A stretch of 64,000 bases of DNA from Parcubacteria group bacterium (GTDB lineage: Bacteria > Patescibacteriota > Minisyncoccia > Phycocordibacterales > GCA-002724975): NCBI GenBank assembly GCA_002724975.1, contig PBQF01000039.1, forward strand, positions 1,152 to 65,151, written 5' to 3'. Position numbers and translations under genes: made by a program. Positions 9,109 through 59,313 of the stretch are shown here, piece by piece. The notes beneath the pieces are model-generated. The model was not told where the DNA came from. It was given only the letters and a program-made list of their open reading frames with translations, and made no database searches. The first letter of the stretch is position 1, and each line of letters starts with the position of its first letter.

Positions 9109-9978
9109 TTAGAGATTTTTTTCTGCTTTAATAAATTCTTCCAACCCACCATCTAAAACACCCTCAACGTCCCTGACTTCCACTTCTGTTCTGTGGTCCT
9201 TAATCATTTTATATGGATGAAGAACATAGGAGCGAATCTGGTTTCCCCATTCAACCTCGGTAGTTTTTGAAACATAAAGTCCATGCTCTTTCTTCTTCTT
9301 ACGCTCTTCCTCAATATGATATATCTTCCCTTCAAGAATTTCCAGCGCTTTTTCCTTATTTTGCTCTTGACTTCTTTCACTTTCTACATGTACAGAAAGC
9401 TTAGTTGGTTTGTGCACAATTCTGACAGCCGTTTCTCTCTTATTTACATTTTGTCCCCCCGGCCCTGATGATCGGGCAAAAGAAATATCTAAATCATCCT
9501 CTGAAATGTCCATCTCCTTTACACTTTCGAATTTGGGAATCACTTCAACCATTGAAAATGAAGTGTGCCTCTGACTCTTGGCGTTAAACGGGGAAATTCT
9601 GACAAGCCGATGAACTCCTGATTCATTTTTTAGGGTTCCGTAGACATTCTTCCCTTGAATTTCAAATGTAAGATTCCTGTATCCTCCATGATTATTTTCG
9701 TTCCGGTGAAGAATATTAATAATCCAACCCTTGTCTTCTATATATTTCTGATACATTTTGAAAAGCATTGCCGAAAAATCTTCGGCATCGTCGCCGCCCG
9801 CTCCGGAGAAAATTGTCATGACTGCTCCCCCTTTGTCATATTTCCCAATACCTTCAAGCTGGTCCTTTAATTCCTGAAGTTCTTTTATTTTTGCCTGCGC
9901 CACATTTTTATCATTCCAGAAATCAGAAGATTGTATCTCTTTTTCCAGACTTTCAATTTTTGATTTTATATCATCCAT
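9109..9978 (-). CDS. prfB: peptide chain release factor 2 (N-terminally short form)
   Basis: SGPGGQNVNK GGQ motif and an RF2-type core. The ORF-track N-terminal extension (to 10113) runs through a tRNA gene, so the start is assigned to ATG at 9976-9978 (MDDIKSK...). Confidence 0.8.
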   Translation of the reverse strand: MDDIKSKIESLEKEIQSSDFWNDKNVAQAKIKELQELKDQLEGIGKYDKGGAVMTIFSGAGGDDAEDFSAMLFKMYQKYIEDKGWIINILHRNENNHGGYRNLTFEIQGKNVYGTLKNESGVHRLVRISPFNAKSQRHTSFSMVEVIPKFESVKEMDISEDDLDISFARSSGPGGQNVNKRETAVRIVHKPTKLSVHVESERSQEQNKEKALEILEGKIYHIEEERKKKKEHGLYVSKTTEVEWGNQIRSYVLHPYKMIKDHRTEVEVRDVEGVLDGGLEEFIKAEKNL

Positions 9979-9989
9979 AATGCTTGATG

Positions 9990-10062
9990 AGCCGAAGGCG
10001 AGGATTGAACTCGCGACCTCACCATTACGAGTGGTGCGCTCTACCAACTGAGCTACTTCGGC
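9990..10062 (-). tRNA. tRNA-Thr (anticodon CGT)
   Basis: GCCGAAGTAGCTCAGTTGGTAGAGCGCACCACTCGTAATGGTGAGGTCGCGAGTTCAATCCTCGCCTTCGGCT read on the minus strand; anticodon loop CTCGTAA. Confidence 0.85.
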
Positions 10063-10071
10063 TTTCAAGGG

Positions 10072-25500: not shown

Positions 25501-26202
25501 AAAAGTAACGTTTGTAAATGGAATTCTAGCTGCTCCCAATGGAGCAAGCTGTGCGGCAGGTTGTGCTGGTGAAGAAACAGTTAATCCAGATCCTGCTGGA
25601 GCTGGTGTAGCTGATTCATCTTCACCTTCATCGTCGCCTGTCATTGCATCACAAAGTGATTGTGCATGAGCTCTTGATGAAGGGCCCCAGTATCCCGTAC
25701 CAGCTGAAAGTCCAACTGGTGTAAGAACTTCTGCGGCATACTTGTCCTGGAACTTAACAACAGCTCCTTTGGACAAAGAACCAAAGTATTCTGTCTCATT
25801 TCCAGAAGAACCAACACCTGAAGCTGCTACTTGTGTAGAAGCATCCATGTTCAAGAAACTCTGGACATTCAAGACACCTGGTCCTGAATCTCCCTGCGAG
25901 TAGTTAGTTGAAAAAGTGTAACTACATGTTCCACTTCCTCCACCACTCTGCGTGTTTAGTTGAGCTTGTAGCGCGGCGATTGTTGCCAGCAAACTATCAA
26001 TCTGAGCTTGAAGCTCTTCACTAGTTGCCCCATGTGCTAGTTGGGGAGTAGCCAAAGCTACACCAACAGACATGAAGATTGCTGCTGTAAACAATACAAC
26101 CCCTGCAACAACTCTAGAGTATTTTGAATCTCTAATTACTTGCATGTATTGATTTTTAATTTTAATACGACCGTAAGAAATAAATTTCAGACGATCGACC
26201 AT
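22528..26202 (-). CDS. giant (1224 aa) secreted surface protein, Thr/Ser/Gly/Val-rich beta-repeat architecture with PG-binding-like N-terminal module (putative adhesin/S-layer-like)
   Basis: GGAGG SD before the ATG at 26202, signal/TM, coiled coil, a PG_binding_1-like segment (GAVVKFQDKYAAEVLTPVGLSAGTGYWGPSS), then about 1000 aa of low-complexity beta-rich repeats. Confidence 0.6.
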   Translation of the reverse strand: MVDRLKFISYGRIKIKNQYMQVIRDSKYSRVVAGVVLFTAAIFMSVGVALATPQLAHGATSEELQAQIDSLLATIAALQAQLNTQSGGGSGTCSYTFSTNYSQGDSGPGVLNVQSFLNMDASTQVAASGVGSSGNETEYFGSLSKGAVVKFQDKYAAEVLTPVGLSAGTGYWGPSSRAHAQSLCDAMTGDDEGEDESATPAPAGSGLTVSSPAQPAAQLAPLGAARIPFTNVTFTASADGDVVVDGIVVQRVGVGVDGNVDGAVLLDENGTQLGIAKTLNSSHQATLTEDFTIEAGHSRTMTIAVNRPASLSPSGAGEVIGMDVVAVNTSAAVSGSLPISGALHTMNESLTIGAVTMARGSTDPGAAQSKEVGETGYTFSSIKVSAGSAEKVTLNSVRWDQTGSAGPGDLDNVMTYVDGVAYPVSVSNDVYTTVFPGGLEIDKGFSKEISVKGDISGGSGRNVAFDIAKRTDVNVVGNLYGYGLTPPQTNSCGGTTGTACFTSSEDPWYDGAVVTVTAGTINVSTSSAVPAQNISVNTLNVAIGAFDVDVRGESISVAKIPFNLQIGNATTEDGDDLTNIVLVDANGSVVAGPVDGTAADSSDTTGSSVGSFVFSDTVTFPVGINTYTIKAKVGTDLDTDDTLLASTTPTDWGTVRGSVTGNTITPSPASALTTNTMTIKAGALTVSVSSIPLAQTVIAGESGFTYANYILDVSSSGEDVRLTTIPLYYDTSGTATDVSNCQLMDGSTSVTSGSNVVNPSAVGSSTSFTFDGTGLLLSKGTSKTLSLVCDLSSGATGIYWWGLDTGQASGFTGATGLTSGQTVTETLNEANGQLMTSATGGTLTPTLDTGSPGYRIVSAGSTGVELSRIKFSALNEDISLQQVALQLTDVASNTPNALVGRKVTLWDTDGNEYGSATFPTGDFATSTLTSTFTVPNGGSKILVVKGDIGAITANGPMTRSGDLLKVDYDGDNEGVNGNYGTGDASGSNITPAGSDTASQGVRIMAAYPTLERVALTSAEKVLETGANTLYKFMVTAVDGDVALYKWSFSVGSSTVYATTTNYELYAYTSNDFSSADTTFSSDGLLNGGSAFNGLGDTTGATTQKSIVEIYPDKTGESSATTTYVVPSGATRYFELRATASNLRTSTGSESISVSLLGDAAYSVNAATWMEVASGLDGDTNDDFLWSPISTTTQNTINDLDFTNGYQVQGLPSSNMTAESIGHTI

Positions 26203-35768: not shown

Positions 35769-37211
35769 CTATTTTCTTAAGAATAATGGTTTTGGAATAA
35801 CTTTTCCTTCAATTCCCTTTGATATTATTTCTGCTGTTTCTGGAAGAAATGGCTTTAGAAGTGTGGCTATTTCATACAGACGAGTAGCAAGATAAGCAAC
35901 AATCTCTTTTGCTTTTTTTTCGTCCTTCTTAATTAACTTGAAAGGCTCAGTTTCTTGAATATGTGCGTCAAGTATTCCTATTTCTCTCCAGATGTAATCG
36001 AGCGCTTTGTTAAATTCAAAGTTGTCTATATGTATTCTGAGTTTATCAAAATCCGCCCCTTTTAAAATTTCTTCCTTTTTAGGTAAAACTATCTCAACCC
36101 CATAATCAACATACATCTTCATAATTCTACTAAAGAGATTCCCGAGACCATTGGCCAAGTTTGCATTATAGCTTTCCAATAGAATTTCTTCTGAGAAATT
36201 ACTATCTTCAACAGGAGAAACGTGCCTCAAAAGATGGTATCTCAAAGTATCAGTCCCGAATTTCTCCACAATTTCAAAAGGGTCGACGATATTGCCTATC
36301 GACTTTGATATTTTCTCACCCTTCACTGTTATAAAGCCATGGTAGAAGATTTCGTCAGTTGTCTTAATGCCAGCAGAAATTAGCATTGCCTGCCACATTA
36401 GAGACTGGAATCTAACTTGGTCCTTACCAGCAAATTGTATTGTCTGCCCATCATTCCAGAACTTTTGAAAATTGCCGTCTTTATCATCAGGCCAGCCAAG
36501 AGTTGAAATATAATTTGTTAGGGCGTCAAACCAAACATACATTACATGATTTTCATCTCCCGGCACTGGTACCCCCCAAGGCATTTTTTCTTTTATTCTC
36601 GATACAGAAAAATCTTCCAAACCACTCTTAACAAAATTTATTGCTTCCTCCCTTCTCCATTTAGGAGTAATGACTTTCGGATTTTTAAGGTACTCTAGCA
36701 ACTCTTTTTCATATTTACTGAATCTGAAAAAATAATTTTCTTCCTCAACCTCTTCGAGGTTTTTTGTTGAATGGTTTGGACAACGGTTGTTTTTACACTC
36801 GTCCTCCTTTATAAAACGCTCACAAGAAATACAATAAAGTCCTTTATAATTTTTTTTATATATATCACCTTTCTCCTGACATATTTCCCAAAGTTTTTCT
36901 GTAGCCTTAATATGATTTTCATCCGTTGTTCTTATAAAATTGTCATAACTTAAGTTAAGAGCTTTTTTTAATTCATCAAACTTTGGGGCTAGCTCATCAA
37001 CATATTCCTGAGGTTTCTTGCCCACTTCTTGGGCAGCGTTAAAAATTTTCAAACCATGCTCATCTGTTCCAGTATTAAAAAATACTTCCCGGCCCAAAAG
37101 TCTTTCGAAGCGAGCTCTGGCATCAGCCTGAATAATCTCCAATGCAAACCCAATATGCGGTTTGGCATTAACATAAGGAAGTGTGGTTGTTTGATAGAAT
37201 ACTTTTTTCAT
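35769..37211 (-). CDS. metG: methionine--tRNA ligase
   Basis: Class I motifs (HIGF variant of HIGH, KISKS), Zn knuckle CISC...CPNH; start at MKKVFYQ. Confidence 0.9.
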   Translation of the reverse strand: MKKVFYQTTTLPYVNAKPHIGFALEIIQADARARFERLLGREVFFNTGTDEHGLKIFNAAQEVGKKPQEYVDELAPKFDELKKALNLSYDNFIRTTDENHIKATEKLWEICQEKGDIYKKNYKGLYCISCERFIKEDECKNNRCPNHSTKNLEEVEEENYFFRFSKYEKELLEYLKNPKVITPKWRREEAINFVKSGLEDFSVSRIKEKMPWGVPVPGDENHVMYVWFDALTNYISTLGWPDDKDGNFQKFWNDGQTIQFAGKDQVRFQSLMWQAMLISAGIKTTDEIFYHGFITVKGEKISKSIGNIVDPFEIVEKFGTDTLRYHLLRHVSPVEDSNFSEEILLESYNANLANGLGNLFSRIMKMYVDYGVEIVLPKKEEILKGADFDKLRIHIDNFEFNKALDYIWREIGILDAHIQETEPFKLIKKDEKKAKEIVAYLATRLYEIATLLKPFLPETAEIISKGIEGKVIPKPLFLRK

Positions 37212-37267
37212 AAAAATCAATCGGACCACTCTAGAGGTCCGATTAATAAAGACTCCTAGAGAAAATG

Positions 37268-38356
37268 TTACTTGGCCTCATGCATGACATGTTCTTCGAC
37301 CAATTTTTTGTTGCCTACCTCGATATCATTTATAAATTCCATGATTACTGTAGCAATCGGAACAGATAGAATTATACCGAGGAAACCAGCCAATCTAACA
37401 CCGATTAAAATAGAGATTATGACAAAAATGGCCGGTAGTCCAGTGACTTTCTTAACAACCAAAGGAAAAATGAGGTGGTTCTCGAACTGCTGAATGATCA
37501 TATATAGAGCCATAACTATAAGACCAGTAGTTACTCCTCCCTGATCAAAACCTAGAACAATAGCCGGAATAGCGGCCAAAATAGGCCCAAATAGAGGTAT
37601 GAGCTCGAAAATAGCTGCTAATACAGCCAGAAGAAAAGCAAATTTTATATCAAGAATAGCAAGCCCTAGATAGACTAATACACCAATTATCAGGCCCAAA
37701 ACTAGCTGCCCCTGCATCCAAAGACCAATTTTAACCTGTGACCTCCTCCATAAATCAACAATGTATTCTTGGTGCTTGGCTGGAGTAATAATTCTCAAAA
37801 AGTTACCAACACCATTTTCTTGAACTGAAAGATAAAAAGAAAGAACAACTATTAATATAAAACTCATAGCGCCGCCGAAAATAGCACTAGCAGTTTTCCA
37901 GAATCCTTCGGTGGCACTGCCAATCATATTTTGAAACTGGCTGACAAAATCAGTAATAGAAAGATTTTGTGATATATCCTTGACCGCTGGATTTAGAATA
38001 CCTAAATCTTTATCATTAATGGGATTCCAAAAATTAATGTTATCAACAAACTGTGGAAGATTAGTTACAAAACTTGAAACCTCTTTAAAAAGAGACGGTA
38101 CAAAAGAATAAAAAAGTCCAATAAAAAAAACTGCCAAAAGAAGATAGACCAAAATGACCGCAGGTAATCTTGGAATTTTGTGTCTTCTGAACCATTTAAC
38201 AGCTGGTTCGATTGCCGAGGCAACAACTACCGAGGTAAGCATGACCAAAACCAAGTCTCTAAAAAGGTAGAGCGCAGAAAACAAAAGAATGAAAAGTATC
38301 GACTTAATAATGGTCCCAGAATCAATATGAATATTGAGGTCTCTTCCTCCTTCCAT
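37268..38356 (-). CDS. AI-2E family transporter (PerM/UPF0118)
   Basis: 362 aa, 8 TM, typical AI-2E layout. Confidence 0.7.
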   Translation of the reverse strand: MEGGRDLNIHIDSGTIIKSILFILLFSALYLFRDLVLVMLTSVVVASAIEPAVKWFRRHKIPRLPAVILVYLLLAVFFIGLFYSFVPSLFKEVSSFVTNLPQFVDNINFWNPINDKDLGILNPAVKDISQNLSITDFVSQFQNMIGSATEGFWKTASAIFGGAMSFILIVVLSFYLSVQENGVGNFLRIITPAKHQEYIVDLWRRSQVKIGLWMQGQLVLGLIIGVLVYLGLAILDIKFAFLLAVLAAIFELIPLFGPILAAIPAIVLGFDQGGVTTGLIVMALYMIIQQFENHLIFPLVVKKVTGLPAIFVIISILIGVRLAGFLGIILSVPIATVIMEFINDIEVGNKKLVEEHVMHEAK

Positions 38357-38413
38357 TAAGATTATTATTACACTTTAGAAAAAGAGAAGCAAAGGATTAA
38401 ATTTGAGCACCCC

Positions 38414-40348
38414 TTAATCAATAACCCTTTCGCCTCCAGTCTTGAAACTCGGGTCCGTACTTATTCGAGTAGTTAGTTCCCCCTTAGTGCTTTCCAGAAG
38501 AGCGCCGGTAAAATCATCTTTAGCTGTTACCTTAGATTTGTTCACAAGAATCGGAACATTGTTAACCTGACTTAAACTTGGAGTAAAACCTATTTGAAAG
38601 GCCACTTCTCGAGCCGATGAGGAAAATCCCGAGCCGGAAGCAATAGCCCCAACATCCCAAGAAACCTCCCTATTAACAGAGTTGTAATTCAAAGTTTCCT
38701 CCGAAGCGCTTGTGTTAGCGGTCCACCTGATATAAGAAGGGAGTTTAGCTGAAATAACTATGTCCGAAGCATTATTAACGCTGTTACTTAAAGTCCAAAT
38801 AACTGTGTAGGTTGTCTCTACTTCTGCCTTTGGAGGAATAGGACCTGAATTCAAAATTGGTCCTGAAAAATGAACTATTCTGGGTGCCAGAGAAAGATTT
38901 GTATCAAATCTTATACTTTTCTTTGACGAAGAAATAACTTCTTCTGACACATTAGATTCTGAAAGTCTCCTACCTCTAACACTAACATTTAACGAGACCT
39001 CGGGATTTCTTAGAGAAGCCCCGGTAAACTCCATTGAATTAAACCTAAAATTAACAGTGCCATTGTCTCCTGGATTAACAGATTCAAAAAAAGGACTCCT
39101 TTCTTGATTCCAAACAACAATATCACTCAAAGAATCAAAAAATCCTCCTCTAACAAAAACTGAATTTTCATCAACATCTCCAACAATTTTTGCTTCTATT
39201 TCTACATTTGCAATACTTGTTGGTAAATTGTTCTTCCATAGGATATCAACATTCACAATTTCTCCGACTGGAGTACTGTAATTATTTGAGGTGCTGCCAT
39301 CGACTACAATATCAAGAGACAGAAATGGTTTTTTTATAAAAATTAATTGAGTTGATGAAACAAAGGCAGTTTTTAGTTCCTGTTCGTCATCTTCGCTTTG
39401 AAGGCCACTGAAAAATCTAAAAATTCTTTCTTCATTGTCCTGGCCTTCAAGGACTCCTGTTATTTCTATTTTTTTCTCCTCGCCCGGAGACAAATCTCCT
39501 ATTTTCCAAATATTTTGTTCATACGAAGTCCGTGGTACAGATTCTTTAAATGTAAAACCAAATGGATACTCGGCAATAAACATTAAATCTTCTATTAGAT
39601 TATTGGAGTTTGACTTCAGAGTGACATCAAGTGATATTTCTTTACCAGAATTAACTTCTGTTAGAGACTCTATTGAAAAACTTACTGGTGAAGAACTTAT
39701 TTCAATTTCATATTCTTTTTCTTTAAAGAAAATAGCATTTGAACCCGAAACCCTGTATTCAACTGTTAACTTTATCTTTTCTTTGCTTCCCTCTTCCCCA
39801 AAAAGAACAGCATTTATCTCCTGCTCGAATTTATCTCCTGAGCCTATGTTACCTAAAGGAAATCGCTCCCGAGGAAGCTCAAGAGAGAGATTATTTGGTG
39901 ATCTGGTACCATCTGGATACTCAACAATCAAATCGGCTAATTCCAGAGCCGTATTATTATCATTAAAAACAATAATATCTAAAGAAAGTCTTTCCCCTCC
40001 ACTAACCGAGACAGGGCCTGAAACACTAACTTCAACATTGTCTGAAGAAATAATATTCCCCCCACCAAATAAGACAAACGAGGCAATAGCTAAAGCAAGA
40101 ATGAAAAATGCTACAGAACCTACCAAAAACTTTTTTAAAAAATTTCTTTGTTTTTTAGCCATTTGATTTTCTAAGGTTGGATTTTCAACAAGATTTTTCT
40201 TATCCTCTTCGGACCAGTCGTCTCTTATATCATTAACATTAATCCCAGTCGGTCTTCTTATATTCTCATCGGGCTGAGAAAAAGACCTGGAGTCCAGATG
40301 TTTTTTAAGTTCTTCTATTTTACTTTTCTCTTCATTTTCATTCTCCAT
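38414..40348 (-). CDS. hypothetical membrane-anchored extracellular beta-rich protein
   Basis: 644 aa; acidic cytoplasmic N-terminus, one TM, large extracellular portion. Confidence 0.4.
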   Translation of the reverse strand: MENENEEKSKIEELKKHLDSRSFSQPDENIRRPTGINVNDIRDDWSEEDKKNLVENPTLENQMAKKQRNFLKKFLVGSVAFFILALAIASFVLFGGGNIISSDNVEVSVSGPVSVSGGERLSLDIIVFNDNNTALELADLIVEYPDGTRSPNNLSLELPRERFPLGNIGSGDKFEQEINAVLFGEEGSKEKIKLTVEYRVSGSNAIFFKEKEYEIEISSSPVSFSIESLTEVNSGKEISLDVTLKSNSNNLIEDLMFIAEYPFGFTFKESVPRTSYEQNIWKIGDLSPGEEKKIEITGVLEGQDNEERIFRFFSGLQSEDDEQELKTAFVSSTQLIFIKKPFLSLDIVVDGSTSNNYSTPVGEIVNVDILWKNNLPTSIANVEIEAKIVGDVDENSVFVRGGFFDSLSDIVVWNQERSPFFESVNPGDNGTVNFRFNSMEFTGASLRNPEVSLNVSVRGRRLSESNVSEEVISSSKKSIRFDTNLSLAPRIVHFSGPILNSGPIPPKAEVETTYTVIWTLSNSVNNASDIVISAKLPSYIRWTANTSASEETLNYNSVNREVSWDVGAIASGSGFSSSAREVAFQIGFTPSLSQVNNVPILVNKSKVTAKDDFTGALLESTKGELTTRISTDPSFKTGGERVID

Positions 40349-40354
40349 AATAAA

Positions 40355-40951
40355 TCAAAGGTCACTAGCTTTAATAGACTGATTTATCTCTTTAACAATA
40401 AGTGGCCTGAAATTATTGGTATAACTCAACATATCACTATTATAATCAGCACCAGCCAACAGGGCTTCTAATTCATGATTGTCTTGCACATATCCCAGAC
40501 TTCTCAAGGTTCTAAGAACGATCAGAGTTTCAAGGTCAGAAACACTTTTATCATCGTGTGCGCCAGACTCCATAAAGTCAAAACCTTTGGTTATTATATC
40601 AAATAACTCCCTGTTGCTGTCCTCTTCGCCGAGAACCCTTTTCAAAAAAAGAAGCACTCTGGTGGAAGACTGAAGTTTTATTTTGTTATTTCTAAATGAG
40701 TCAGGAAGATTTTTTATCTTGTAAGCCTCGGTTATGTGCCAGCCATTTTTACCTTTAATTAGATAGAGATTAATTAGAAAAAGATTCTGTAAATTGTACT
40801 TGAGCTTCGACTTTAACTCCCTAACGCCCTGCGCTCTAACTCGAATAAGACCAAAATCCCGAGTAAAAATATTATAATTTCTACTGGCTTCGCCAATATT
40901 TGCTCCACCAATAACAATACCTGCGGTTTTATATTTTGTGTAAGACATCAC
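40355..40951 (-). CDS. recO: DNA repair protein RecO-like (short form)
   Basis: N-terminal OB-like RecO segment (GIVIGGANIGEASRNYNIFTRDFGLIRVRAQGVRELKSK). Confidence 0.5.
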   Translation of the reverse strand: MMSYTKYKTAGIVIGGANIGEASRNYNIFTRDFGLIRVRAQGVRELKSKLKYNLQNLFLINLYLIKGKNGWHITEAYKIKNLPDSFRNNKIKLQSSTRVLLFLKRVLGEEDSNRELFDIITKGFDFMESGAHDDKSVSDLETLIVLRTLRSLGYVQDNHELEALLAGADYNSDMLSYTNNFRPLIVKEINQSIKASDL

Positions 40952-43900
40952 TTAATTTTAATAGTTAAGGTTATCTCTCCTACCTTAACTTCTTCGCCTT
41001 CTAGAGAACTCTCTTTTTTAATAGAGTCTAGACCACAAACACTTTTTATTTCCTCTTGATGTTTATCAATAAAACTGGTATCTCCATCCGAAGAAAAAGA
41101 TAAAGAAATGGTGTCGCCTGGCTTCAGGCCCATATTCTTTCTCGTGTTTTGAATATACCTGATTAAATCTCTAGCATCACCTTCCTCTCGAAGCTCGGGG
41201 GTAATTTCTACATCAAGCTCAACTTCTAGTGATAAATTCTTGTCAAAAACCACTTTTTTTATATTAGTCTCATCTTTAATTAGATTAATAAGTTCATCTC
41301 TAGCTTTTAACTTTTCGCTTTTAACTTTTAACTCATTCAACGGTTGTCTAACCTTAATTCCAGCAGACGATCTGGCCTCAAGACCAAGAGATACTATATT
41401 TCGAATTTCTTTCATTTCTGAGAGAATATCTTGGTCTACAGAGCCAGTTTTTAGCCATTCATCTAAATGCACGCTCTCTTTCTCTCCACCCACCTTTCCA
41501 TACAAATCTTCCGCAATAAACGGAGTGAATGGAGCCATCAATTTGGAAAGTTCTTGTAAAACATGTCTAGTAGTAGATAAAGCATTTTGTTTGTCCTCAC
41601 CTTTCCCCTTAAATCTATCTCGTGACCTTCGAATATACCAAGTAGATAAATCGTTAATGAAATCAATAAATGGCCGTGCGGCTCTGTCTAGTTCATATTC
41701 ATCCATTGCTTTTGTTACTTCTTCGTTTAATTCTCCCAGACGAGAAATAATCCACTGATCTAAAACATTTTTGGAATCGGAACTACTTTCCTCTCCTTCT
41801 TTAAAAAGCTCATAAAATGAGAGAACATTTTGTAAACGCAAAATCACTTTCTTGTAAACTTCATCAACTCCGCTTTCTAAAAAGTTTAAATCTTCCCCTT
41901 TCATCACAGGAGATGACAAGAGATAAAGTCTCAGAGCATCAACTCCATATTTATCAAAAATAAGAAGTGGGTCAGGATAATTCTGTTTTGACTTAGACAT
42001 TTTACTACCATCTTCTGCTAAAACATTTCCGGTTGTAACAACATTTCTAAAAGCCACATCCCCAAAAAGCATAGTTGAAATTGTATGAGTGTAATAGAAC
42101 CATGTTCTCGTCTGCGCAATATATTCAGCAATAAAGTCAGCTGGAAATTGCTTACCCTCCTTCGGATTAAATTCTTCTGTATTTTCAAAGGGATAATGAT
42201 TTTGCGCAAAAGGCATTGACCCTGATTCGAACCAACAATCAAATACCTCTGGAACTCTTTTCATTTGCCCCCCACAGGAACAATTAAATTCCACAATATC
42301 AATGTAAGGTCTATGTAAATCAAGCTCATACAAATCATTATGTGGCAGGATATTAAACTCTACTTCTCGTACTTCGGAGTTATCAAAATAATCGATGTTT
42401 TCAACCAAATAATTTGCATCCCTGCCCATCGCCGCTCCATATAAAAGATGAATTGGCGTTCTGTGGCTTATTATAAGGATATTTTTGCCTTGATATTTTG
42501 AATCAATTTCATATATAAACTCTCCCATTCTTACTCTTATATCATTCCTGTTCTCGCCGTGCGGACATTTCTTTTCAAACTTTTCGTGCGTATTGCTGAA
42601 AAGTTTAGAATATTCTTCAATCGTTTCGCCATCATATTCCCCAAAGTCTTTCTCGGCAAGCCGTTTGTCATAAACAACTTCAAGACCAAGTTCTTTTGAA
42701 ATAATTTCTGCAGATTCTTTGGCCCTTAAGACTGGTGACGAAAAAATTAAATCAATCTTTTCATTTTTTAATTCCCTTGCTCTCGCCAGAATGTTTTTCT
42801 CTCCCTCGCTAGTTAAATGATTGTCTTTATTACTTCCAGAGTCCAGATATTGTTTTAAATTACTATCAGCGTTGCCGTGACGCATGACAAGATATTTGTT
42901 GCTATTATTTTTTAAACCAAGATCGTCTATTGAACCAACAACTTTCAGAGCATTGCATAAATGACATTTCCAAATTGGAAGAGGAGAAGCCCAGTATCTT
43001 GAGCGAGAAACATTCCAGTCAGGTGCGGTTTCTACAATATGTTCAAATCTGCCATGTTTTAGGTGTTCAGGTATCCATTTAATTTTTTTATTAAGCTCCA
43101 AAATTTCATTTTTTACTTTTTGTATGTTTACAAACCATGCTTCCATAGCATTATAGAAAAGAGGAGTTTCACATCTATAACAATGGGGATAGCTGTGTGT
43201 GTAAAGAATTTCTTTAAAGACAAGGTTATTCTTTTTTAGGAAGTCTAATATATCTTTTTCTGAATCTTTAAAATATTGACCCTTGATTGAGTCTAGAGAA
43301 TCATCATTAAAATACCCTCTCGAATCAAGAAGTGGAATTGCTGGTAAATCTTTTTCTAATCCAAGACGATAATCATCTTCCCCATAAATAACAGCTGTGT
43401 GAACAACACCTGTTCCCTCTTCGATTGAAACAAAATCAGCCGTAGTTATATACCAAGCTTTTTTATCAGATTTCTCAACTTTATCTATATTAAATAATGG
43501 TTCGTATTGAAGGCCGTCTAGAGCCCCGCCAAGGAGTATGCCACTAACTTTTCTCCTTCCGCCAACACCAACATCTTCCTTTTTATCCTTTGCTACAATC
43601 AGATTTTCCCCATCCATATTCCACATTTCGTATTCAATATCTTCTCCCACAGCCAAAGCTACATTTCCAGGCAAAGTCCAAGGGGTTGTTGTCCAAGCCA
43701 AGATATAAGTATTTTCATCAACAATTCCCCAGTCTTGAATTTCTTGTCCGGGCTTCAACTTAAATTTAACAGTTACAGATGTGTCTGTAACGTCCTTATA
43801 ACTATTATCCATAGCAATTTCTGCTTTTGCTAACGAAGTCTCACACCTTGGACAATATAAAAGCACTTTCCTTCCTTCATAAATTAAATCTTTGTCATAG

Positions 43901-44394
43901 ACCTGTTTGAAAGCCCACCAAACAGATTCAATATATGCATTGTCCATTGTTTTATAAGAGCCATCAAAATCAACCCATCTGGCAAATCTTTTTATTGTCT
44001 CTCTCCACTCGTCTACATAATGAAGAACTTTGCTTCTTGCAATTTGGTTAAATTCTTTAATGCCAATCTTTTCTATTTCTTTCCTACTTGAAATACCAAG
44101 TTCTTTTTCAACAATGGTCTCAATAGGCAAACCGTGACAATCCCAGCCCCATCTTCTGGGGACATGATATCCTTTCATAGTCCAATACCTTCCAACAACA
44201 TCCTTTACCGCTGAACCAAGAAGATGCCCGTAGTGGGGTGTCCCAGTTGCAAATGGCGGACCATCATAAAAAGTAAATGGTTTATTATTTTTGGTTTGTT
44301 CTAGAGATTTCTCGAAAATTTTATTCTCTTGCCAAAACTTTAAAATTTCTTTCTCTCTTTTAGCTATTTCGCTTTTTTTATTTTCTTGAGCCAT
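40948..44394 (-). CDS. ileS: isoleucine--tRNA ligase (type 2) with inserted histidine-phosphatase (PGM-like) domain
   Basis: PHYGH (HIGH), GWDCHGLPIE, KMSKS. An approximately 195-aa RHG...SHRTPI histidine phosphatase module lies between the WKCHLC zinc knuckle and the DLHRPYID...CSCGG segment. Confidence 0.85.
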   Translation of the reverse strand: MAQENKKSEIAKREKEILKFWQENKIFEKSLEQTKNNKPFTFYDGPPFATGTPHYGHLLGSAVKDVVGRYWTMKGYHVPRRWGWDCHGLPIETIVEKELGISSRKEIEKIGIKEFNQIARSKVLHYVDEWRETIKRFARWVDFDGSYKTMDNAYIESVWWAFKQVYDKDLIYEGRKVLLYCPRCETSLAKAEIAMDNSYKDVTDTSVTVKFKLKPGQEIQDWGIVDENTYILAWTTTPWTLPGNVALAVGEDIEYEMWNMDGENLIVAKDKKEDVGVGGRRKVSGILLGGALDGLQYEPLFNIDKVEKSDKKAWYITTADFVSIEEGTGVVHTAVIYGEDDYRLGLEKDLPAIPLLDSRGYFNDDSLDSIKGQYFKDSEKDILDFLKKNNLVFKEILYTHSYPHCYRCETPLFYNAMEAWFVNIQKVKNEILELNKKIKWIPEHLKHGRFEHIVETAPDWNVSRSRYWASPLPIWKCHLCNALKVVGSIDDLGLKNNSNKYLVMRHGNADSNLKQYLDSGSNKDNHLTSEGEKNILARARELKNEKIDLIFSSPVLRAKESAEIISKELGLEVVYDKRLAEKDFGEYDGETIEEYSKLFSNTHEKFEKKCPHGENRNDIRVRMGEFIYEIDSKYQGKNILIISHRTPIHLLYGAAMGRDANYLVENIDYFDNSEVREVEFNILPHNDLYELDLHRPYIDIVEFNCSCGGQMKRVPEVFDCWFESGSMPFAQNHYPFENTEEFNPKEGKQFPADFIAEYIAQTRTWFYYTHTISTMLFGDVAFRNVVTTGNVLAEDGSKMSKSKQNYPDPLLIFDKYGVDALRLYLLSSPVMKGEDLNFLESGVDEVYKKVILRLQNVLSFYELFKEGEESSSDSKNVLDQWIISRLGELNEEVTKAMDEYELDRAARPFIDFINDLSTWYIRRSRDRFKGKGEDKQNALSTTRHVLQELSKLMAPFTPFIAEDLYGKVGGEKESVHLDEWLKTGSVDQDILSEMKEIRNIVSLGLEARSSAGIKVRQPLNELKVKSEKLKARDELINLIKDETNIKKVVFDKNLSLEVELDVEITPELREEGDARDLIRYIQNTRKNMGLKPGDTISLSFSSDGDTSFIDKHQEEIKSVCGLDSIKKESSLEGEEVKVGEITLTIKIK

Positions 44395-44420
44395 AAATTA
44401 TTTATAGTAAACTTGTCGAA

Positions 44421-46085
44421 TTACATTTTTTCTGGAATTTTAATTCCCAAAAGATGAAGACCGTTTTTTAAAGTGTTGGCTACAGCCTTAGTTAAAAATA
44501 TTTTGTACTCGCCACCCTCTTCTACAATTTTCTGTGTTGCATAAAAACCATTAAAGCTACCCGCCAAATCAATCAAGAATTTGGATATTAACTGCGGAGA
44601 TTTGTCCTGCCAAGCCCTCAAAATAACTTCAGGAAATTTATAAAGCATTCTCTCAATTTCGATTGATTCCCAGTCATCCGGCAATTCGTTGGAAGGTTTT
44701 AAGCCCTTGGCTTTAGCAATATCCAAAACAGATTTTGCTCGAACAGTTGTATACTGTAAATATGGCCCTGAATCGCCCTCAAATGAGATTGATTTATCAA
44801 AATTAAAGATAATATCTCGACCAATTCCTTGCTTTAAAATCGAATACTTTAAGGCGGAAATAGCTACCATTTCAGCTACTTCTTCCCGATTCTCAACCTC
44901 TCTTTCCTCCATTACCTCTAAAACTTTATCCTGTATTTCCCCGAGCAAAGAATCTGCCGAAATCACGTCACCTGTTCTTGAAGACATCTTTCCTTCTGAT
45001 AGACGAAGCATTCCATGTCCAATATGAGTTGTTTTGTTAGCAAATCCTTCCTTTTCATAAACATGCTTCATTACTTCAAGTAAAACATCAAAGTAAGCAT
45101 TCACTTCGTTACCTGAAATGACATAGGATTCGTCGTAAGAAAAATATTCATCCTTAATTTTGGCTAGACCAAGTTCTTTTGCTTCATAAGTTGGTAGTCC
45201 AACAGAATTAATAAAAACTCTTGTATGAAGTCCGTAATTTTCTCCTTTGAAAACAATGGCTCCGTCACTCTTTTGAAAAAGATTTGCATTACTCTCAACT
45301 ATTTCCCTTCCCTCTTTCCCAGCCTCGCTCTCAAAAAACAACTTGTCAAATTCTGTGCCAAGTTTTTCATACATTTTTTCAAAATTATCCAGAGAAATTT
45401 CCTTACCTTGATCGTAAACTCTATTTATTTCCTCGTCCTCCCTACTATAAATCTTTTTGTTAATTTCTATAATCTCTTCTTTTGCCTTTTCGTCTTCTTC
45501 AAAACTTTTTGATCCTTTCGAATACGCCTCTCCCAAATCTTCATTTGTTTCTACTTTTTTCTTATCTTTCAAAATACTCCAAATAGCTTTAGCAATATGA
45601 AGTCCAACATCACCTTGATAATTTACCCTTCTCACATCAGCACCACCGAATTCTGCAATTCTTGAAAGAGATTCCCCGATAGTGTTAGTCATTAAATGCC
45701 CAATATGAAAAATCTTAAATGGGTTTGGGTCTGTATATTCAAGAATTACTTTTTTACCTGCAAGTGTTTTATTTTTACCAAAGCTTTCTTTAGTAGCATC
45801 CTTTAAACTGCTTGCAAAAAATTCTTTAGTTAGATGGAAATTAATAAACCCCGCTCCGGCTACATCAATTTTCTCTACTTCTTTTGGTTTTTCTAGATTC
45901 TCGACTATCTTCTCTGCTAGTTCTTTAGGGGAGTTTTTCTCTTTTTTAGATAGAATTAGAGCGATATTTGTTGAGTAGTCTCCATGAGAAAAATCTCCCG
46001 GGTGCTCAAAAATAACCTTATCGGCCGAAAGCCCAAGCTTTCCCAATGATTTCTGTAGTTTTTCCTTTAAAATATCGCTTATCAT
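44421..46085 (-). CDS. argS: arginine--tRNA ligase
   Basis: FHIGHLMTN HIGH motif, DALR anticodon-binding C-terminus. Confidence 0.9.
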   Translation of the reverse strand: MISDILKEKLQKSLGKLGLSADKVIFEHPGDFSHGDYSTNIALILSKKEKNSPKELAEKIVENLEKPKEVEKIDVAGAGFINFHLTKEFFASSLKDATKESFGKNKTLAGKKVILEYTDPNPFKIFHIGHLMTNTIGESLSRIAEFGGADVRRVNYQGDVGLHIAKAIWSILKDKKKVETNEDLGEAYSKGSKSFEEDEKAKEEIIEINKKIYSREDEEINRVYDQGKEISLDNFEKMYEKLGTEFDKLFFESEAGKEGREIVESNANLFQKSDGAIVFKGENYGLHTRVFINSVGLPTYEAKELGLAKIKDEYFSYDESYVISGNEVNAYFDVLLEVMKHVYEKEGFANKTTHIGHGMLRLSEGKMSSRTGDVISADSLLGEIQDKVLEVMEEREVENREEVAEMVAISALKYSILKQGIGRDIIFNFDKSISFEGDSGPYLQYTTVRAKSVLDIAKAKGLKPSNELPDDWESIEIERMLYKFPEVILRAWQDKSPQLISKFLIDLAGSFNGFYATQKIVEEGGEYKIFLTKAVANTLKNGLHLLGIKIPEKM

Positions 46086-52958: not shown

Positions 52959-54104
52959 TTAGTTTCCAATCATCCTCTCAACTCCTAAAAATTCATTTTT
53001 AGTGTCTTCTTTATGGTATGCTTTCCCGTATCTTCTCATGCCCATTAGGATTCCAAGGGCTAAAAATTCCGTCACGATATGTGAACCTCCGTAACTTAAA
53101 AATGGTACAGTTGTCCCAGTCACCGGCAAGAGTCCTATATTCATTCCAACATGAATAATAAAATGGCTTATCAAAAATATTGAAACTCCTAATCCAAAAA
53201 GTATCTCAAAATTTGTTGCCCCATGTAAAGCACTAAGTAATATTCTCCAAAACAAAACACCAAATAGAGAGAATAAAATAATAACCCCAATAAAACCCCA
53301 TTCTTCCGAAAAGGCAGCAAAAACAAAATCAGTCTCATATTCGGGTAAAAATTCCAAGCGCGATTGGGTGCCATAGCCAATCCCTTTTCCGGTAAGTTGT
53401 CCTGAACCAACGGCAATTGTCGATTGAAGAGCGTTATACCCCGCCCCCGAAGTGTCGGTTAAAGGATTAAGAAAAGTTAGAATCCTATCCTTCTGATATG
53501 GCACAAAAACAAAGCTCCATAATAAGACCATAGATAAAAGGCCAACAAGAAGAACTAGAAAGAGATGTTTTTTTGAAATTCCCGAAACTAAAACTAAACC
53601 AAGCCAAATCATAAAAATAATAATAGCTGAACCAAAGTCTGGCTGAAGCAAAACTAAAAGGAAAATTGTCAGGGCATAAAAACCAGAAACTAGAAGATGT
53701 CTGAAATTCGCAATCTCAACATGCCTCCTAGAAAAATATTTAGCTAAAATAATTATTAAAAAAATTTTTATTGGATCTGATGGTTGAAGTGAAAAAGCTC
53801 CAAAGTCAAACCAACTAATCGCTCCCTTTGTCACTTGGCCTGCAACGAAAAGAGTGATTAAAAGTCCGGTTGAAACAAGAAAAAGAAGAACGGAAACCCA
53901 GGTTCTTCGAAGAAACCTCCAATCAACTAAACTAGCCAGAAAAAAGACTCCAAAACCTATCAAAATCCAGATAATTTGCCTTTCGAAGAAAATACTCTCC
54001 CCAACAAAGGAATTCATGGTCACTAATCCGGCGCCTAACAAAGGAATAGTTGCTAGAAATAGATACCAATCTATGTTCAAACCGACTTTTTTAACTAAAT
54101 CCAT
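52959..54104 (-). CDS. SEDS family peptidoglycan polymerase (RodA/FtsW)
   Basis: 10-TM FtsW/RodA/SpoVE pattern. Confidence 0.85.
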   Translation of the reverse strand: MDLVKKVGLNIDWYLFLATIPLLGAGLVTMNSFVGESIFFERQIIWILIGFGVFFLASLVDWRFLRRTWVSVLLFLVSTGLLITLFVAGQVTKGAISWFDFGAFSLQPSDPIKIFLIIILAKYFSRRHVEIANFRHLLVSGFYALTIFLLVLLQPDFGSAIIIFMIWLGLVLVSGISKKHLFLVLLVGLLSMVLLWSFVFVPYQKDRILTFLNPLTDTSGAGYNALQSTIAVGSGQLTGKGIGYGTQSRLEFLPEYETDFVFAAFSEEWGFIGVIILFSLFGVLFWRILLSALHGATNFEILFGLGVSIFLISHFIIHVGMNIGLLPVTGTTVPFLSYGGSHIVTEFLALGILMGMRRYGKAYHKEDTKNEFLGVERMIGN

Positions 54105-54865
54105 TAGTTTCTAGTACCAAACTTTGGTAGAATTTCGACCCTTCCGATAGGGCTTTTGAAAGGATTGGGCCAAGTGAAAGTGACCTTCTCCATTGAGTCC
54201 GGACTTATGTTTTCGACAAGTGTTTTGGAACTAGCCATGGCGTTATCAGCCATGTCATAAATTATGGCAAACAGCTCTACGTCTTTTATTGAAACAAAGC
54301 CTCTGTTTTCAAGCTCTACATCAACCCTCGGAGAAGAATCAGTATTTATTATTCCTCTCTTATTTATTCGGAGATTTGAACTTATATTCTCCTGAGTCAG
54401 CCATTCAACTTTACTAGTGAATTCAAAGAATGTTTTATCTGGAGCCCTTTCTCTGGTCACAATTGTCCCTTCAAAAATAGGGAACCTCGTTTGAGCTGGG
54501 ATATCAGTTTTACCCTTTCTTTCATAAACTAGAACACCTTTGTCATCAAGAAGTGTGAAAGTGTAAAAGACATCTTGTGCCCCAGCACTCAGATTTGGGT
54601 TCTCTATCATGGCAACAGAATTATAGACTCCATCTCTTACTTCAAAACTTCTGGTCCAAAGAATTAATGGTTCAGCTACAGTAAATCCACAAATTTTTTC
54701 ACATCCACCACCGCAGTCGACTCCGCGTTCATTACTATTTTGTTTACCATCAAAACAAGTTGGCTCTTTATTAAAAATATTATAAACAGGAAGAGCAAAA
54801 ACAATGACGAGAATTAATATCAAACCCCCTAAATAGATAGATCTGTTTTTAGATGACCAACTCAT
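54104..54865 (-). CDS. hypothetical membrane-anchored secreted protein
   Basis: Start at the ATG at 54863-54865 (MSWSSKNRSIYLGGLILILV...). The track extension to 55192 runs through the 5S rRNA gene. Confidence 0.45.
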   Translation of the reverse strand: MSWSSKNRSIYLGGLILILVIVFALPVYNIFNKEPTCFDGKQNSNERGVDCGGGCEKICGFTVAEPLILWTRSFEVRDGVYNSVAMIENPNLSAGAQDVFYTFTLLDDKGVLVYERKGKTDIPAQTRFPIFEGTIVTRERAPDKTFFEFTSKVEWLTQENISSNLRINKRGIINTDSSPRVDVELENRGFVSIKDVELFAIIYDMADNAMASSKTLVENISPDSMEKVTFTWPNPFKSPIGRVEILPKFGTRN

Positions 54866-54932
54866 GAACTCTATAATACCAGAAAAACAAAATACTCCGC
54901 CATATTTAGCGAAGTATTTTGTTTTAAGTTCT

Positions 54933-55041
54933 CTAAGTTGGCGGTGACCTACTCTCGCCTTGCGACTACCATCGGTGCTAACAGGCTTAACTTCTGTGTT
55001 CGGAATGAGAACAGGTGTAGCCCTATCGCCAAACCACCAAC
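54933..55041 (-). rRNA. rrf: 5S ribosomal RNA
   Basis: Minus-strand GGTGGTTTGGCGATAGGGCTACACCTGTTCTCATTCCGAACACAGAAGTTAAGCCTGTTAGCACCGATGGTAGT...GTCACCGCCAAC. Confidence 0.9.
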
Positions 55042-55174
55042 TTAGAAAACTCAAATATTCAAAAGGTACGCCCTTACACTTTTTAGTGTGATATTGCCCA
55101 AAGACAACACACCCAAGTGTGTCACATCGGAAGATGTGGGGATAAATTGCAAACAAATTGTGGTTTTCAAAGCT

Positions 55175-58175
<3,001 letters not shown>

Positions 58176-58572: not shown

Positions 58573-59313
58573 ATGTTGGAACCATATGATATACTTCCCG
58601 TCATGCAAACTTTATATAGAAAACTCTCCCCATACTATAAATACTTTGTAAATTTTCATGCGGACACAAAAAAAGAGATTGAGGTTTTAAATAAGCTGTT
58701 TAAACAACACAAAGTAAAATCAATACTTGATATTGCTTGTGGTATAGGAAGACACAGTATAGCACTTGCAAAGTTAGGCTATGATGTGACAGGGGTGGAT
58801 TTTTCATCCTCTCAACTAGCACAGGCAAGGAAAGATGCAAAAGAAGCTGGTGTAAAGGTTACTTTCGTCAAAAAAGATGCAAATTATTTTACTTCACATA
58901 AAAAATTTGATGCAATAATTTGTATGTGGTCAACATTGGGGGAAGAACCTATGCAGTATGAAAAAGTAATACCAAATGTCTTTCGCTCTCTGAAAAAAAA
59001 CGGGGTATTTATAATAGACAATAGAGATTGGTCTGATATACCAAAAGGCGGGAAAAGAACTATACGCAACAGTTTATCTACTCCACACTACAAAATTAAA
59101 CAATTAATACTAGATAGATTTACCGAACATTTTCGCATCAGAGATATAACTTATACTATAAATGGAAAACAATATGATGACCTTTGTATTACACATATTA
59201 TTAGACCTAAAGAATGGGTAGCCGAATTGAGACAAGCTGGCTTTCGGAACAATAAAATAATAAAGAATTACAAAAGTAAGAAAACAAGTACTCTAATTGT
59301 GGGACAAAAGTAG
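58573..59313 (+). CDS. class I SAM-dependent methyltransferase
   Basis: Motif I DIACGIGRHSIALAKLGYDVTGVDFS, 246 aa. Confidence 0.8.
   Translation: MLEPYDILPVMQTLYRKLSPYYKYFVNFHADTKKEIEVLNKLFKQHKVKSILDIACGIGRHSIALAKLGYDVTGVDFSSSQLAQARKDAKEAGVKVTFVKKDANYFTSHKKFDAIICMWSTLGEEPMQYEKVIPNVFRSLKKNGVFIIDNRDWSDIPKGGKRTIRNSLSTPHYKIKQLILDRFTEHFRIRDITYTINGKQYDDLCITHIIRPKEWVAELRQAGFRNNKIIKNYKSKKTSTLIVGQK

Follow-up and report, generated by a model that had tools for sequence, protein, structure and literature searches.

The ileS gene of the window, by which we mean the whole 64,000-nucleotide stretch of Parcubacteria DNA under analysis, is located on the reverse strand between argS and a recO-like gene. 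Its reading frame is unbroken and encodes a protein of 1148 aa, in which a histidine phosphatase domain is embedded in an isoleucyl-tRNA synthetase (IleRS) of type 2. No glycolytic genes were found within the 64-kb window. The genes, and the features within ileS, are as follows.

44421..46085, (-) strand: argS, directly upstream of ileS with a gap of 26 bp (Pfam ArgRS domains)
40948..44394, (-) strand: ileS, encoding the 1148-aa type-2 IleRS with the embedded histidine phosphatase domain, stop codon included (ORF listing, Pfam, TIGR00392)
42919..44394, (-) strand: IleRS N-terminal part, aa 1-492, with the first half of the Rossmann domain including PHYGH, the CP core, the CP1 editing domain, CP2 and the first half of CP3 (8c8u residues 5-474)
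42955..42966, (-) strand: first half of the CP3 zinc knuckle, C477-x-x-C480 (motif positions)
42328..42918, (-) strand: inserted branch-1 histidine phosphatase domain, aa 493-689 (Pfam PF00300, AlphaFold2, Foldseek)
42874..42882, (-) strand: R505-H506-G507, predicted nucleophilic histidine motif (R505 and H506 in 120/120 homologs, G507 in 118/120)
42859..42861, (-) strand: N512, predicted phosphate-pocket asparagine (118/120 homologs)
42724..42726, (-) strand: R557, predicted second phosphate-pocket arginine (120/120 homologs)
42652..42654, (-) strand: E581, predicted general acid (120/120 homologs)
42463..42465, (-) strand: H644, predicted second catalytic histidine (120/120 homologs)
40951..42327, (-) strand: IleRS C-terminal part, aa 690-1148, with DLHRPYID, the second half of the Rossmann domain including KMSKS, the anticodon-binding domain and an IleRS2-type C-terminal domain (8c8u 485-865 and beyond)
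42274..42282, (-) strand: second half of the CP3 zinc knuckle, C705-S-C707 (motif positions)
40355..40951, (-) strand: recO-like gene, directly downstream and overlapping the ileS stop, used as a synteny marker (Pfam RecO_N)

Judged from its motifs and profile matches, the host protein is a bona fide type-2 IleRS. The hallmarks on which an earlier note had based this assignment are all found where it had placed them: PHYGH at aa 53-57, GWDCHGLPIE at aa 83-92, KMSKS at aa 798-802, and the zinc knuckle with WKCHLC at aa 475-480 and CSCGG at aa 705-709, the latter preceded by DLHRPYID at aa 692-699. The ileS equivalog profile TIGR00392 matches the whole protein with 847.3 bits, above its cut-off of 621.4, and Pfam recognizes tRNA-synt_1, His_Phos_1, Anticodon_1 (aa 879-1020) and DUF5915 (aa 1021-1148). 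The nearest PDB structures are type-2 or Thermus thermophilus-like enzymes, and both P. megaterium IleRS2 (8c8u) and T. thermophilus IleRS (1ile) align with the host end to end outside the insert. The CP1 editing domain aligns with the isolated IleRS editing-domain structures 1wk8 and 1udz; in this domain, W234-T-T-T-P-W-T240 and the block from G327 to D341 (G327-T-G329, H332 and D341) do not vary among 58 homologs. The identical protein at NCBI is named 'class I tRNA ligase family protein [Candidatus Paceibacterota bacterium]'. That an IleRS class defined by curation has an extra enzymatic domain is not without precedent, as NF040702 ('isoleucine--tRNA ligase, N-acetyltransferase domain-containing') shows, but there the extra domain is GNAT and the IleRS lineage is another one, and the window protein scores 312 bits against 1999.

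The domain inserted in CP3

The His_Phos_1 family (PF00300) matches aa 502-679 of the protein (E 2.5e-34; 119.1 bits against a cut-off of 21.7), covers profile positions 2-180 of 194, and is flanked by two tRNA-synt_1 segments. When the protein is aligned with 8c8u, query residues 5-492 fall on chain residues 5-474 and query residues 690-1062 on chain residues 485-865. This break at 492/690 means that about 197 residues stand in for about 10, and it bears out the earlier proposal of an insert of about 195 aa between the halves of the zinc region (42325-42912, aa 495-690). Solved type-2 IleRS have about 10-40 residues at this site, in contrast to an enzyme domain of 197 residues in the window protein. 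With about 0.36, the insert has the same GC content as its flanks.

The insert thus separates the C477/C480 half of the CP3 zinc knuckle from the C705/C707 half. Both the name CP3 and the zinc motif of T. thermophilus IleRS CP3 are taken from the literature (PMC7191050). In insert-less relatives, the same CxxC...CxC pattern is present with its halves about 20 aa apart. The four-Cys pattern is kept in 68 of 120 fused homologs, and ligands are lost in 43%. The zinc-knuckle subdomain CP3 lies at the periphery of the catalytic domain, as a surface element of variable structure, and no contact of CP3 with tRNA or with the active site is reported in the IleRS literature that we found.

Judged from its sequence and its modeled fold, the insert is a complete branch-1 histidine phosphatase domain. 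From the histidine-phosphatase signature originally proposed, the RHG motif (LVMRHGNADSN, aa 502-512) and the second histidine (ISHRTPIHLL, aa 642-651) were retained, whereas 'EGE' (aa 530-532) was not: only G531 in it is conserved, and the acid is placed at E581. The spacing of +24 from R557 to E581 is presumably that of PhoE. The full set R505/H506/N512/R557/E581/H644 is kept in 118 of the 120 fused homologs, although identity among fused homologs is only about 42% across the insert, against about 58% in the IleRS core. Catalytic positions that are nearly invariant on such a divergent background argue for selection on catalysis. The AlphaFold2 model of the insert has a pLDDT of 95.6 and a pTM of 0.92, and its best Foldseek matches are PspA (4ij6), Rv2419c, 6s2q, 9mmh and PhoE (1h2e), with TM of about 0.8. 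In fold (TM about 0.8), size and catalytic core, the insert resembles Hydrogenobacter thermophilus PspA (4ij5/4ij6), Mycobacterium tuberculosis GpgP Rv2419c (4pz9), PhoE (1h2e), CobC (6e4b) and the riboflavin-pathway HFP (9mmh); however, these are only 20-24% identical to it and none of them is embedded in another enzyme. The E-value in Pfam, the complete set of catalytic residues and the predicted fold rule out an ordinary connective segment in which RHG occurs by coincidence. It is very probable that an active phosphatase resides inside CP3 of a functional IleRS.

The subfamily of the domain is less easily named. Its best NCBIfam match is the archaeal phosphoglycerate mutase profile dPGM_arch (NF038349), with 102 bits against a cut-off of 225, and the second best is the RNase H-acid phosphatase (PRK07238/NF005567), with 97 against 326. 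CobC gives 79 against 163, PspA 78 against 350, GpmB (NF002901) 51 against 261, and the dPGM profile TIGR01258 23 against 81.7; SixA is a weak match only. Assignment to dPGM, GpmB, PspA, CobC, SixA or the RNase H-phosphatase was rejected, the insert being below every curated cut-off. Since all equivalog cut-offs are missed, a substrate is not transferable from any characterized subfamily. The Rv2228c-type RNase H/acid phosphatase is comparable in that a CobC-like His_Phos_1 domain is fused to a nucleic-acid enzyme, but that fusion is terminal and has another partner. In dPGM, the second phosphate or the carboxylate of the substrate is bound by Arg/Tyr residues after the catalytic Glu and by an Arg-Arg pair; the consensus after E581 in the homologs of the insert, hydrophobic-N/D-x-G-x-F-D/E-G-K, resembles that of phosphatase-type members. 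The description 'phosphoglycerate-mutase-like' given to the insert in the earlier note applies to the fold only, since the domain misses every mutase equivalog cut-off and is closer to the small phosphatases. Names in IMG vary: one homolog is labeled 'isoleucyl-tRNA synthetase/bisphosphoglycerate-dependent phosphoglycerate mutase', and the free proteins of the subfamily, which we call hp, are labeled 'broad specificity phosphatase PhoE'.

Fused, free and duplicated forms in Patescibacteria

The IleRS-phosphatase fusion is carried by at least 483 GTDB species of Parcubacteria/Paceibacterota, counted in a GTDB scan with an alignment reaching from the insert into the IleRS core. Relatives in Gracilibacteria and Peregrinibacteria have one or two such domains. 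At all 80 fused loci inspected, the N-terminal part of IleRS, the insert and the C-terminal part lie in a single ORF, and no second hp gene is nearby. Among relatives, IleRS occurs both with the insert and, in sister lineages, without it. In these sister lineages, hp is a standalone gene of about 190 aa in the order argS-hp-ileS-recO, as seen at 6 of 6 loci checked (L081, L082, L084, L086, L094 and L095), and the partner IleRS has no insert. This order equals the synteny of the window with hp relocated. The free proteins, annotated as 'histidine phosphatase family protein' (e.g., in Staskawiczbacteria), belong to the same subfamily and are 37-46% identical to the insert. They share with it the N-x-Y-h-h-h-RHG start, the catalytic residues and the gene neighborhood, but are separate polypeptides whose partner IleRS has a short zinc-knuckle CP3. 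On this comparison of genes and gene order, the insert appears to be the fused form of a dedicated hp gene of about 190 aa that is sited between argS and an insert-less ileS in sister Patescibacteria.

Other arrangements also exist. Two to four tandem hp copies are present within some IleRS, a second insertion site lies after KMSKS, and five catalytic positions (R, H, R, E, H) are retained in every complete copy in multi-copy IleRS. It seems, therefore, that hp was repeatedly re-inserted or duplicated within IleRS. The same subfamily also occurs as a C-terminal fusion to ArgRS and to Sua5/TsaC, and 98 of the best 150 representative relatives are IleRS-linked. The ArgRS-hp fusion was found at a locus without ileS, so that the link may be to the locus or to aminoacyl-tRNA synthetases generally, and not to IleRS specifically. 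Insert-less ileS genes of Peregrinibacteria have no neighboring hp, which indicates that the partnership is not obligatory. In a neighbor-joining tree, one clade takes in 24 of the 35 free hp and another takes in 58 of the 61 fused ones; this separation is partial, and fusion events are not countable from the tree because the domain is too short and divergent.

The architecture had been considered non-standard at first. The fusion is real, but it is common in Patescibacteria and a case in SR1 was already described in 2013, in which IleRS is interrupted by two PGM domains and a Nudix domain (Kantor et al., 2013, mBio; PMC3812714). The window protein fits this description of a Patescibacteria IleRS frame internally interrupted by at least one PF00300 domain, and the phenomenon is the same, namely a CPR/Patescibacteria IleRS interrupted by His_Phos_1 ('PGM') domains. 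The SR1 protein, however, has two phosphatase domains and a Nudix domain, whereas the window protein, from Paceibacterota, has one phosphatase domain and no Nudix. An SR1-type Nudix insert is also absent from 15 long homologs and from precomputed Pfam lists. The 2013 description is one sentence long, without insertion site, residue analysis, distribution or function (PMC3812714). Beyond Kantor et al. (2013), no other mention of IleRS or another aminoacyl-tRNA synthetase with a histidine phosphatase was found in the literature.

Possible roles of the phosphatase

ArgRS and Sua5/TsaC, the other fusion partners of hp, both turn ATP into an adenylate and PPi. The embedded domain would hydrolyze a phosphomonoester or a terminal phosphoanhydride through a phospho-His506 intermediate, with R505, N512, R557 and H644 holding the phosphate and E581 acting as the acid. 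Because relatives have this phosphatase in a gene of its own directly before ileS, hp and IleRS probably cooperate. We infer a functional coupling of hp to IleRS and, in a wider sense, to tRNA enzymes that form adenylates. There, hp may dispose of a small phosphorylated by-product, or of a compound derived from a nucleotide, where it arises; PPi, AMP and other nucleotide derivatives are the leading candidates. The parts of this proposal differ in strength. A real functional coupling of hp with IleRS or tRNA enzymes is reasonably likely, and the explanation as a whole (a working IleRS, a competent phosphatase in CP3, derivation from hp, and coupling to tRNA enzymes) is slightly favored. It is possible, if somewhat doubtful, that hp is a dedicated partner of IleRS, ArgRS and TsaC/Sua5 whose substrate is PPi, which would make it a pyrophosphatase built into the enzyme, or else AMP or another nucleotide phosphate, for instance one derived from Ap4A; a by-product or nucleotide as the substrate of hp is by itself a tentative suggestion, rather doubtful at present. 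The Nudix co-insertion in SR1 IleRS (PMC3812714) is consistent with hydrolysis of a by-product or nucleotide.

Among the alternatives, the one that survives best regards hp as an independent metabolic enzyme merely co-expressed with IleRS and captured by fusion in compact genomes. It would then be a general phosphatase of the PhoE/PspA type, or else the phosphoglycerate mutase that is 'missing' from some Parcubacteria. Some Parcubacteria clades are reported to be without phosphoglycerate mutase (Jaffe et al.), and an embedded domain would escape annotation that gives one function to each protein. The top rank of archaeal dPGM in the NCBIfam list and the IMG names also speak for such an enzyme; its mutase version is weakened by the missed cut-offs of dPGM_arch and TIGR01258, by structural neighbors that are phosphatases and not mutases, and by the consensus after E581, which appears not to carry the Arg/Tyr residues of dPGM. 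Moreover, the RAAC4 OD1 genome carries the fusion (locus L045) and yet is reported to have the EMP pathway through to pyruvate (PMC3812714). Probably, hp is not a glycolytic phosphoglycerate mutase, and a hidden mutase of the clades lacking one is less likely than action on a by-product of tRNA enzymes. Mere co-expression finds support in the simple neighbor fusion ArgRS-hp, but leaves the internal insertion, the second site, the two to four tandem copies and the strict adjacency of hp and ileS unexplained. Taken together, the independent metabolic enzyme is unlikely. As a general matter, operon adjacency and fusion can also come from co-expression alone in very compact genomes.

Another possibility is that hp acts on a macromolecular phosphate, such as a 2'/3'- or other phosphate at a tRNA end, or a phosphorylated residue of IleRS, for example in reversing HipA-like toxin kinases that target aminoacyl-tRNA synthetases. 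The histidine phosphatase superfamily includes the protein and phospho-histidine phosphatases SixA, PGAM5 and Sts-1, and SixA is a weak match for the insert. Tethering of hp to the tRNA-binding enzymes IleRS and ArgRS would suit such a role, and several tethered copies would increase the local phosphatase concentration. However, the fusion partner Sua5/TsaC, by its chemistry, works on small molecules and not on tRNA, the nearest structures of hp are all small-molecule phosphatases, nothing points to an Ile-specific tRNA phosphate, and a kinase is absent from the conserved neighborhood of the ileS/hp loci. A macromolecular substrate is accordingly improbable. Still less probable is a catalytically inert hp serving as a structural or regulatory spacer in place of the CP3 zinc knuckle: the missing zinc ligands in 43% of fused homologs would allow hp to stabilize CP3 instead, but all six catalytic positions hardly vary although identity across the insert is only about 42%, and the same is true of tandem copies and free genes. 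It is hardly credible that the fusion stems from a chimeric assembly or a frameshift, or that the insert is a mobile or intein-like element or was gained horizontally in recent times, given the unbroken frame, the identical protein on 32 contigs from several sources, the fusion conserved over hundreds of species, the uniform GC and the lack of a Hint/endonuclease domain in Pfam.

Although few enzymes have been studied as thoroughly as aminoacyl-tRNA synthetases, we know of no other active phosphatase built into the catalytic domain of one. What is new here is the standalone hp gene in the order argS-hp-ileS-recO beside an insert-less IleRS; what was already known is one published sentence from 2013 on the SR1 case (PMC3812714). 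The pairing of hp and IleRS as adjacent gene, CP3 insert, insert at a second site and tandem copies, together with the fusions to ArgRS and TsaC, argues that tRNA charging in ultra-small cells is linked to a phosphohydrolase, and it is conserved over hundreds of species in a major radiation of uncultivated bacteria. If hp does hydrolyze a by-product of these tRNA enzymes, it would be a catalytic accessory in the synthesis of aminoacyl-tRNA that had gone unrecognized, and one that has become fixed in much of the Patescibacteria. Metabolic reconstructions of CPR could change as well, since a domain hidden in an 'IleRS' gene is missed by annotation that allows one function per gene.

The isoleucyl-tRNA synthetase and its insert

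An earlier note read the ileS product as an isoleucyl-tRNA synthetase (IleRS) interrupted by a histidine phosphatase, and all the motifs quoted there were found in their places.

Features of ileS and its product
40948-44394, minus strand: ileS, reading frame unbroken in the ORF listing, 1148 aa
aa 53-57: PHYGH
aa 83-92: GWDCHGLPIE
aa 475-480: WKCHLC
aa 502-512: LVMRHGNADSN, in the insert
aa 642-651: ISHRTPIHLL, in the insert
aa 692-699: DLHRPYID
aa 705-709: CSCGG
aa 798-802: KMSKS

The product scores 847 bits in the NCBI ileS equivalog (cut-off 621), which bears out the synthetase assignment. Pfam finds a split tRNA-synt_1, Anticodon_1 and DUF5915, the editing-domain motifs are invariant among homologs, and the full-length AlphaFold2 model has a pLDDT of 89.4 and a pTM of 0.82. 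Judged from its sequence, the host protein is a real and functional-looking IleRS. At the HIGH signature (aa 53-57), 57 of the 120 fused homologs P0001-P0120, IleRS relatives carrying the insert, have PHYGS, with the final His replaced by Ser, and PHYGH is present in only 39, the window protein among these. Absence of this His, the second of HIGH, is unusual in a class I synthetase.

Alignment to the type-2 structure 8c8u (Priestia megaterium IleRS2) pairs residues 5-492 with 5-474 and 690-1062 with 485-865, and about 197 residues replace about 10. The insert is flanked by the zinc ligands C477/C480 and C705/C707 (window 42955-42966 and 42274-42282), and these cysteines and the alignment confirm its claimed position between the two zinc-binding halves. 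In the AlphaFold2 model, two strands (474-477, 483-485) and a helix (489-492) precede it, and a helix (697-700) and two strands (702-704, 710-713) follow, which identifies the interrupted subdomain as CP3. CP3 is a peripheral element of variable topology among IleRSs, with a zinc motif in Thermus thermophilus IleRS (PMC7191050). The insert does not differ from its flanks in GC content.

His_Phos_1 (PF00300) matches aa 502-679, between two synthetase segments, at E 2.5e-34 and 119 bits (Pfam cut-off 21.7). Residue conservation was read from 120 aligned homologs, 49-56% identical overall, with about 42% identity in the insert against about 58% in the core. The catalytic set is R505/H506/N512/R557/E581/H644; 118 of these sequences show RHNREH at the six positions, and the other two deviate only at N512. 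G531, S553, E614 and R622 do not vary either. For the insert modelled on its own, the predicted fold has a pLDDT of 95.6 and a pTM of 0.92. Pfam match, catalytic set and predicted fold thus agree with the histidine-phosphatase signature claimed earlier; the "EGE" included in it, however, is not conserved as a motif, and the conserved acid is E581. The nearest solved structures (TM about 0.8) are small-molecule phosphatases: phosphoserine phosphatase PspA, glucosyl-3-phosphoglycerate phosphatase Rv2419c, mycobacterial hydrolases, the riboflavin-pathway HFP, PhoE and CobC. No NCBIfam equivalog cut-off was reached; the insert therefore forms a subfamily of its own, to which no substrate can be transferred.

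NCBIfam scores of the insert (score, cut-off)
Archaeal dPGM: 102, 225
RNase H/acid phosphatase: 97, 326
CobC: 79, 163
PspA: 78, 350

Going by sequence and model, the insert is a well-folded branch-1 histidine phosphatase with intact predicted catalytic residues, placed inside CP3. The earlier observation is therefore real and its interpretation correct. All four zinc-knuckle cysteines are kept in only 68 of the 120 fused homologs (ligands lost in 43%), and the homologs without them still always keep the phosphatase. In those, the ligands are mostly replaced together, chiefly by N, D, S or T.

Elsewhere in the window, metG, ileS and argS, three class I synthetase genes, lie on the same strand within about 10 kb (35769-46085, minus), with genes for an AI-2E transporter and a DUF11 surface protein and recO between metG and ileS. 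The 23S (55175-58174) and 5S (54936-55041) rRNA genes (54936-58174, minus) have no adjacent 16S gene, and a methyltransferase gene (58573-59313) is next upstream of the 23S gene. A mechanical ORF at 54104-55192, without any Pfam match, shares sequence with the 3' end of the 23S gene and with the 5S gene, which makes at least the 5' part of this ORF spurious. A release-factor ORF with PCRF and RF-1 domains (9109-10113, minus) overlaps two tRNA-Thr genes (9990-10145, minus) at its 5' end; since its PCRF match begins only at residue 73, the true start lies further downstream. For a 1224-aa ORF (22528-26202, minus) Pfam gives no match at E <= 0.001, and a neighbouring 655-aa ORF (18540-20507) has weak LTD and Ig-like matches only; both may encode CPR-specific surface proteins.

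Distribution and variants of the fusion

The window protein belongs to a widespread, barely described class of Patescibacteria IleRS. NCBI already has an identical protein under Candidatus Paceibacterota, and PF00300 is present in all 120 best homologs. Relatives occur in at least 483 GTDB species, scanned with one genome per species; Nomura-, Yonath-, Vogel-, Adler-, Lloyd- and Zambryskibacteria, RAAC4_OD1_1 and other Parcubacteria/Paceibacterota account for the best 80. In all 80 of these loci a single ORF encodes IleRS-N, insert and IleRS-C, and none has a second phosphatase ORF nearby. With a two-domain variant as search seed, the architecture was also found in Gracilibacteria, Peregrinibacteria, Peribacteraceae and "Altimarinota", where forms with zero, one and two domains coexist. 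One such relative is labelled [quoted passage not shown] in IMG.

Tandem His_Phos_1 copies in CP3 number two in P0219 and P0140, three in P0233 and four in P0122, and P0266 and P0210 have a second copy elsewhere, between KMSKS and the anticodon-binding domain. In these IleRS variants, catalytic R, H, R, E and H are retained by every complete copy. Among the best 150 representatives, 98 are linked to IleRS, 45 apparently free-standing and 7 were initially unclear, two of which a Pfam scan resolved as ArgRS and Sua5 fusions. The former (P0172, 689 aa; L092/L093 7001-9070) carries the same subfamily at its C-terminus, at a locus that lacks ileS and has recO directly after the fusion gene; the latter, a Sua5/TsaC threonylcarbamoyl-AMP synthase (P0179, 387 aa; L091 977-2140), also carries it C-terminally. 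Linkage to ileS is a conserved feature that has been re-invented repeatedly. An odd 1066-aa "IleRS" (P0247; L088 6001-9201) has an IS200-like Y1 transposase domain within its N-terminal half, then His_Phos_1 and a C-terminal GNAT domain, and lacks the anticodon-binding region; the gene may be decayed or chimeric. NF040702 is a curated NCBIfam class of IleRS with a GNAT domain.

The phosphatase as a separate gene beside ileS

The key new result is that this phosphatase is also encoded on its own, by a gene adjoining ileS. Searched exhaustively with HMMER, the insert matched not only IleRS fusions but also many complete proteins of about 190 aa, 37-46% identical to it and sharing an N-x-Y-h-h-h-RHG start. 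Ten aligned free proteins keep the catalytic residues, except that E581 is D and N512 is Q or T in some. The free family comprises at least 120 clusters under Patescibacteria or Staskawiczbacteria labels, and in a neighbour-joining tree built on the short domain, fused and free forms are only partly separated.

In all six free loci looked up, the order is argS-phosphatase-ileS-(x)-recO-DUF11/CLIPPER. The free gene ends 1-25 bp before an insert-less ileS, whose product (931-962 aa) is 35-50% identical to the window core and has an ordinary short CxxC...CxC CP3 loop. The window matches this synteny, with argS, a 26-bp gap, the fused ileS, recO and a DUF11 protein. The phosphatase lies either between argS and ileS or within ileS, and none of the 86 inspected loci has it in both places. 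Two insert-less Peregrinibacteria ileS genes have no phosphatase neighbour; the link is thus widespread, not universal. At these loci (L089 and L090, contigs of about 0.8-1 Mb), ileS encodes an IleRS of 1038-1039 aa and is adjoined by purine and riboflavin biosynthesis genes, which hints that the link to the phosphatase may go with metabolic reduction.

Possible role of the phosphatase

Full-text searches for IleRS or aminoacyl-tRNA synthetases plus "histidine phosphatase" returned nothing relevant, and no study of such IleRSs was found that covers insertion site, residues, distribution or function. This kind of protein was, however, already noticed in 2013, in a remark on an SR1 protein, which differs in having an additional Nudix domain (Kantor et al., 2013; PMC3812714). 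It is also visible in automatic annotation.

From family chemistry, the domain would hydrolyse a terminal phosphate via phospho-His506, E581 serving as the acid. IleRS, ArgRS and TsaC, the three enzymes it is fused to, each turn ATP into an acyl-adenylate and PPi, with AMP released later; TsaC is not known to handle tRNA. Nudix domains are typical of nucleotide-diphosphate hydrolases, and phosphoanhydrides are hydrolysed by other members of the histidine phosphatase superfamily. Because of this shared adenylate/PPi chemistry and the SR1 Nudix domain, the reading favoured, though at a low probability, is that the phosphatase would remove a small nucleotide-related by-product such as PPi, AMP or a derivative.

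That it is an independent metabolic enzyme, including the phosphoglycerate mutase "missing" in some Parcubacteria (PMC7304191), is doubtful, given the unreached NCBIfam cut-offs, the structural neighbours of the insert, and insertions at several sites and in several copies. A phosphatase of tRNA ends or phosphoproteins is unlikely, an inert spacer very improbable, and an artefact can practically be dismissed.

The alternative conserved architectures make a functional partnership of the phosphatase with IleRS likely, and this partnership is experimentally tractable.
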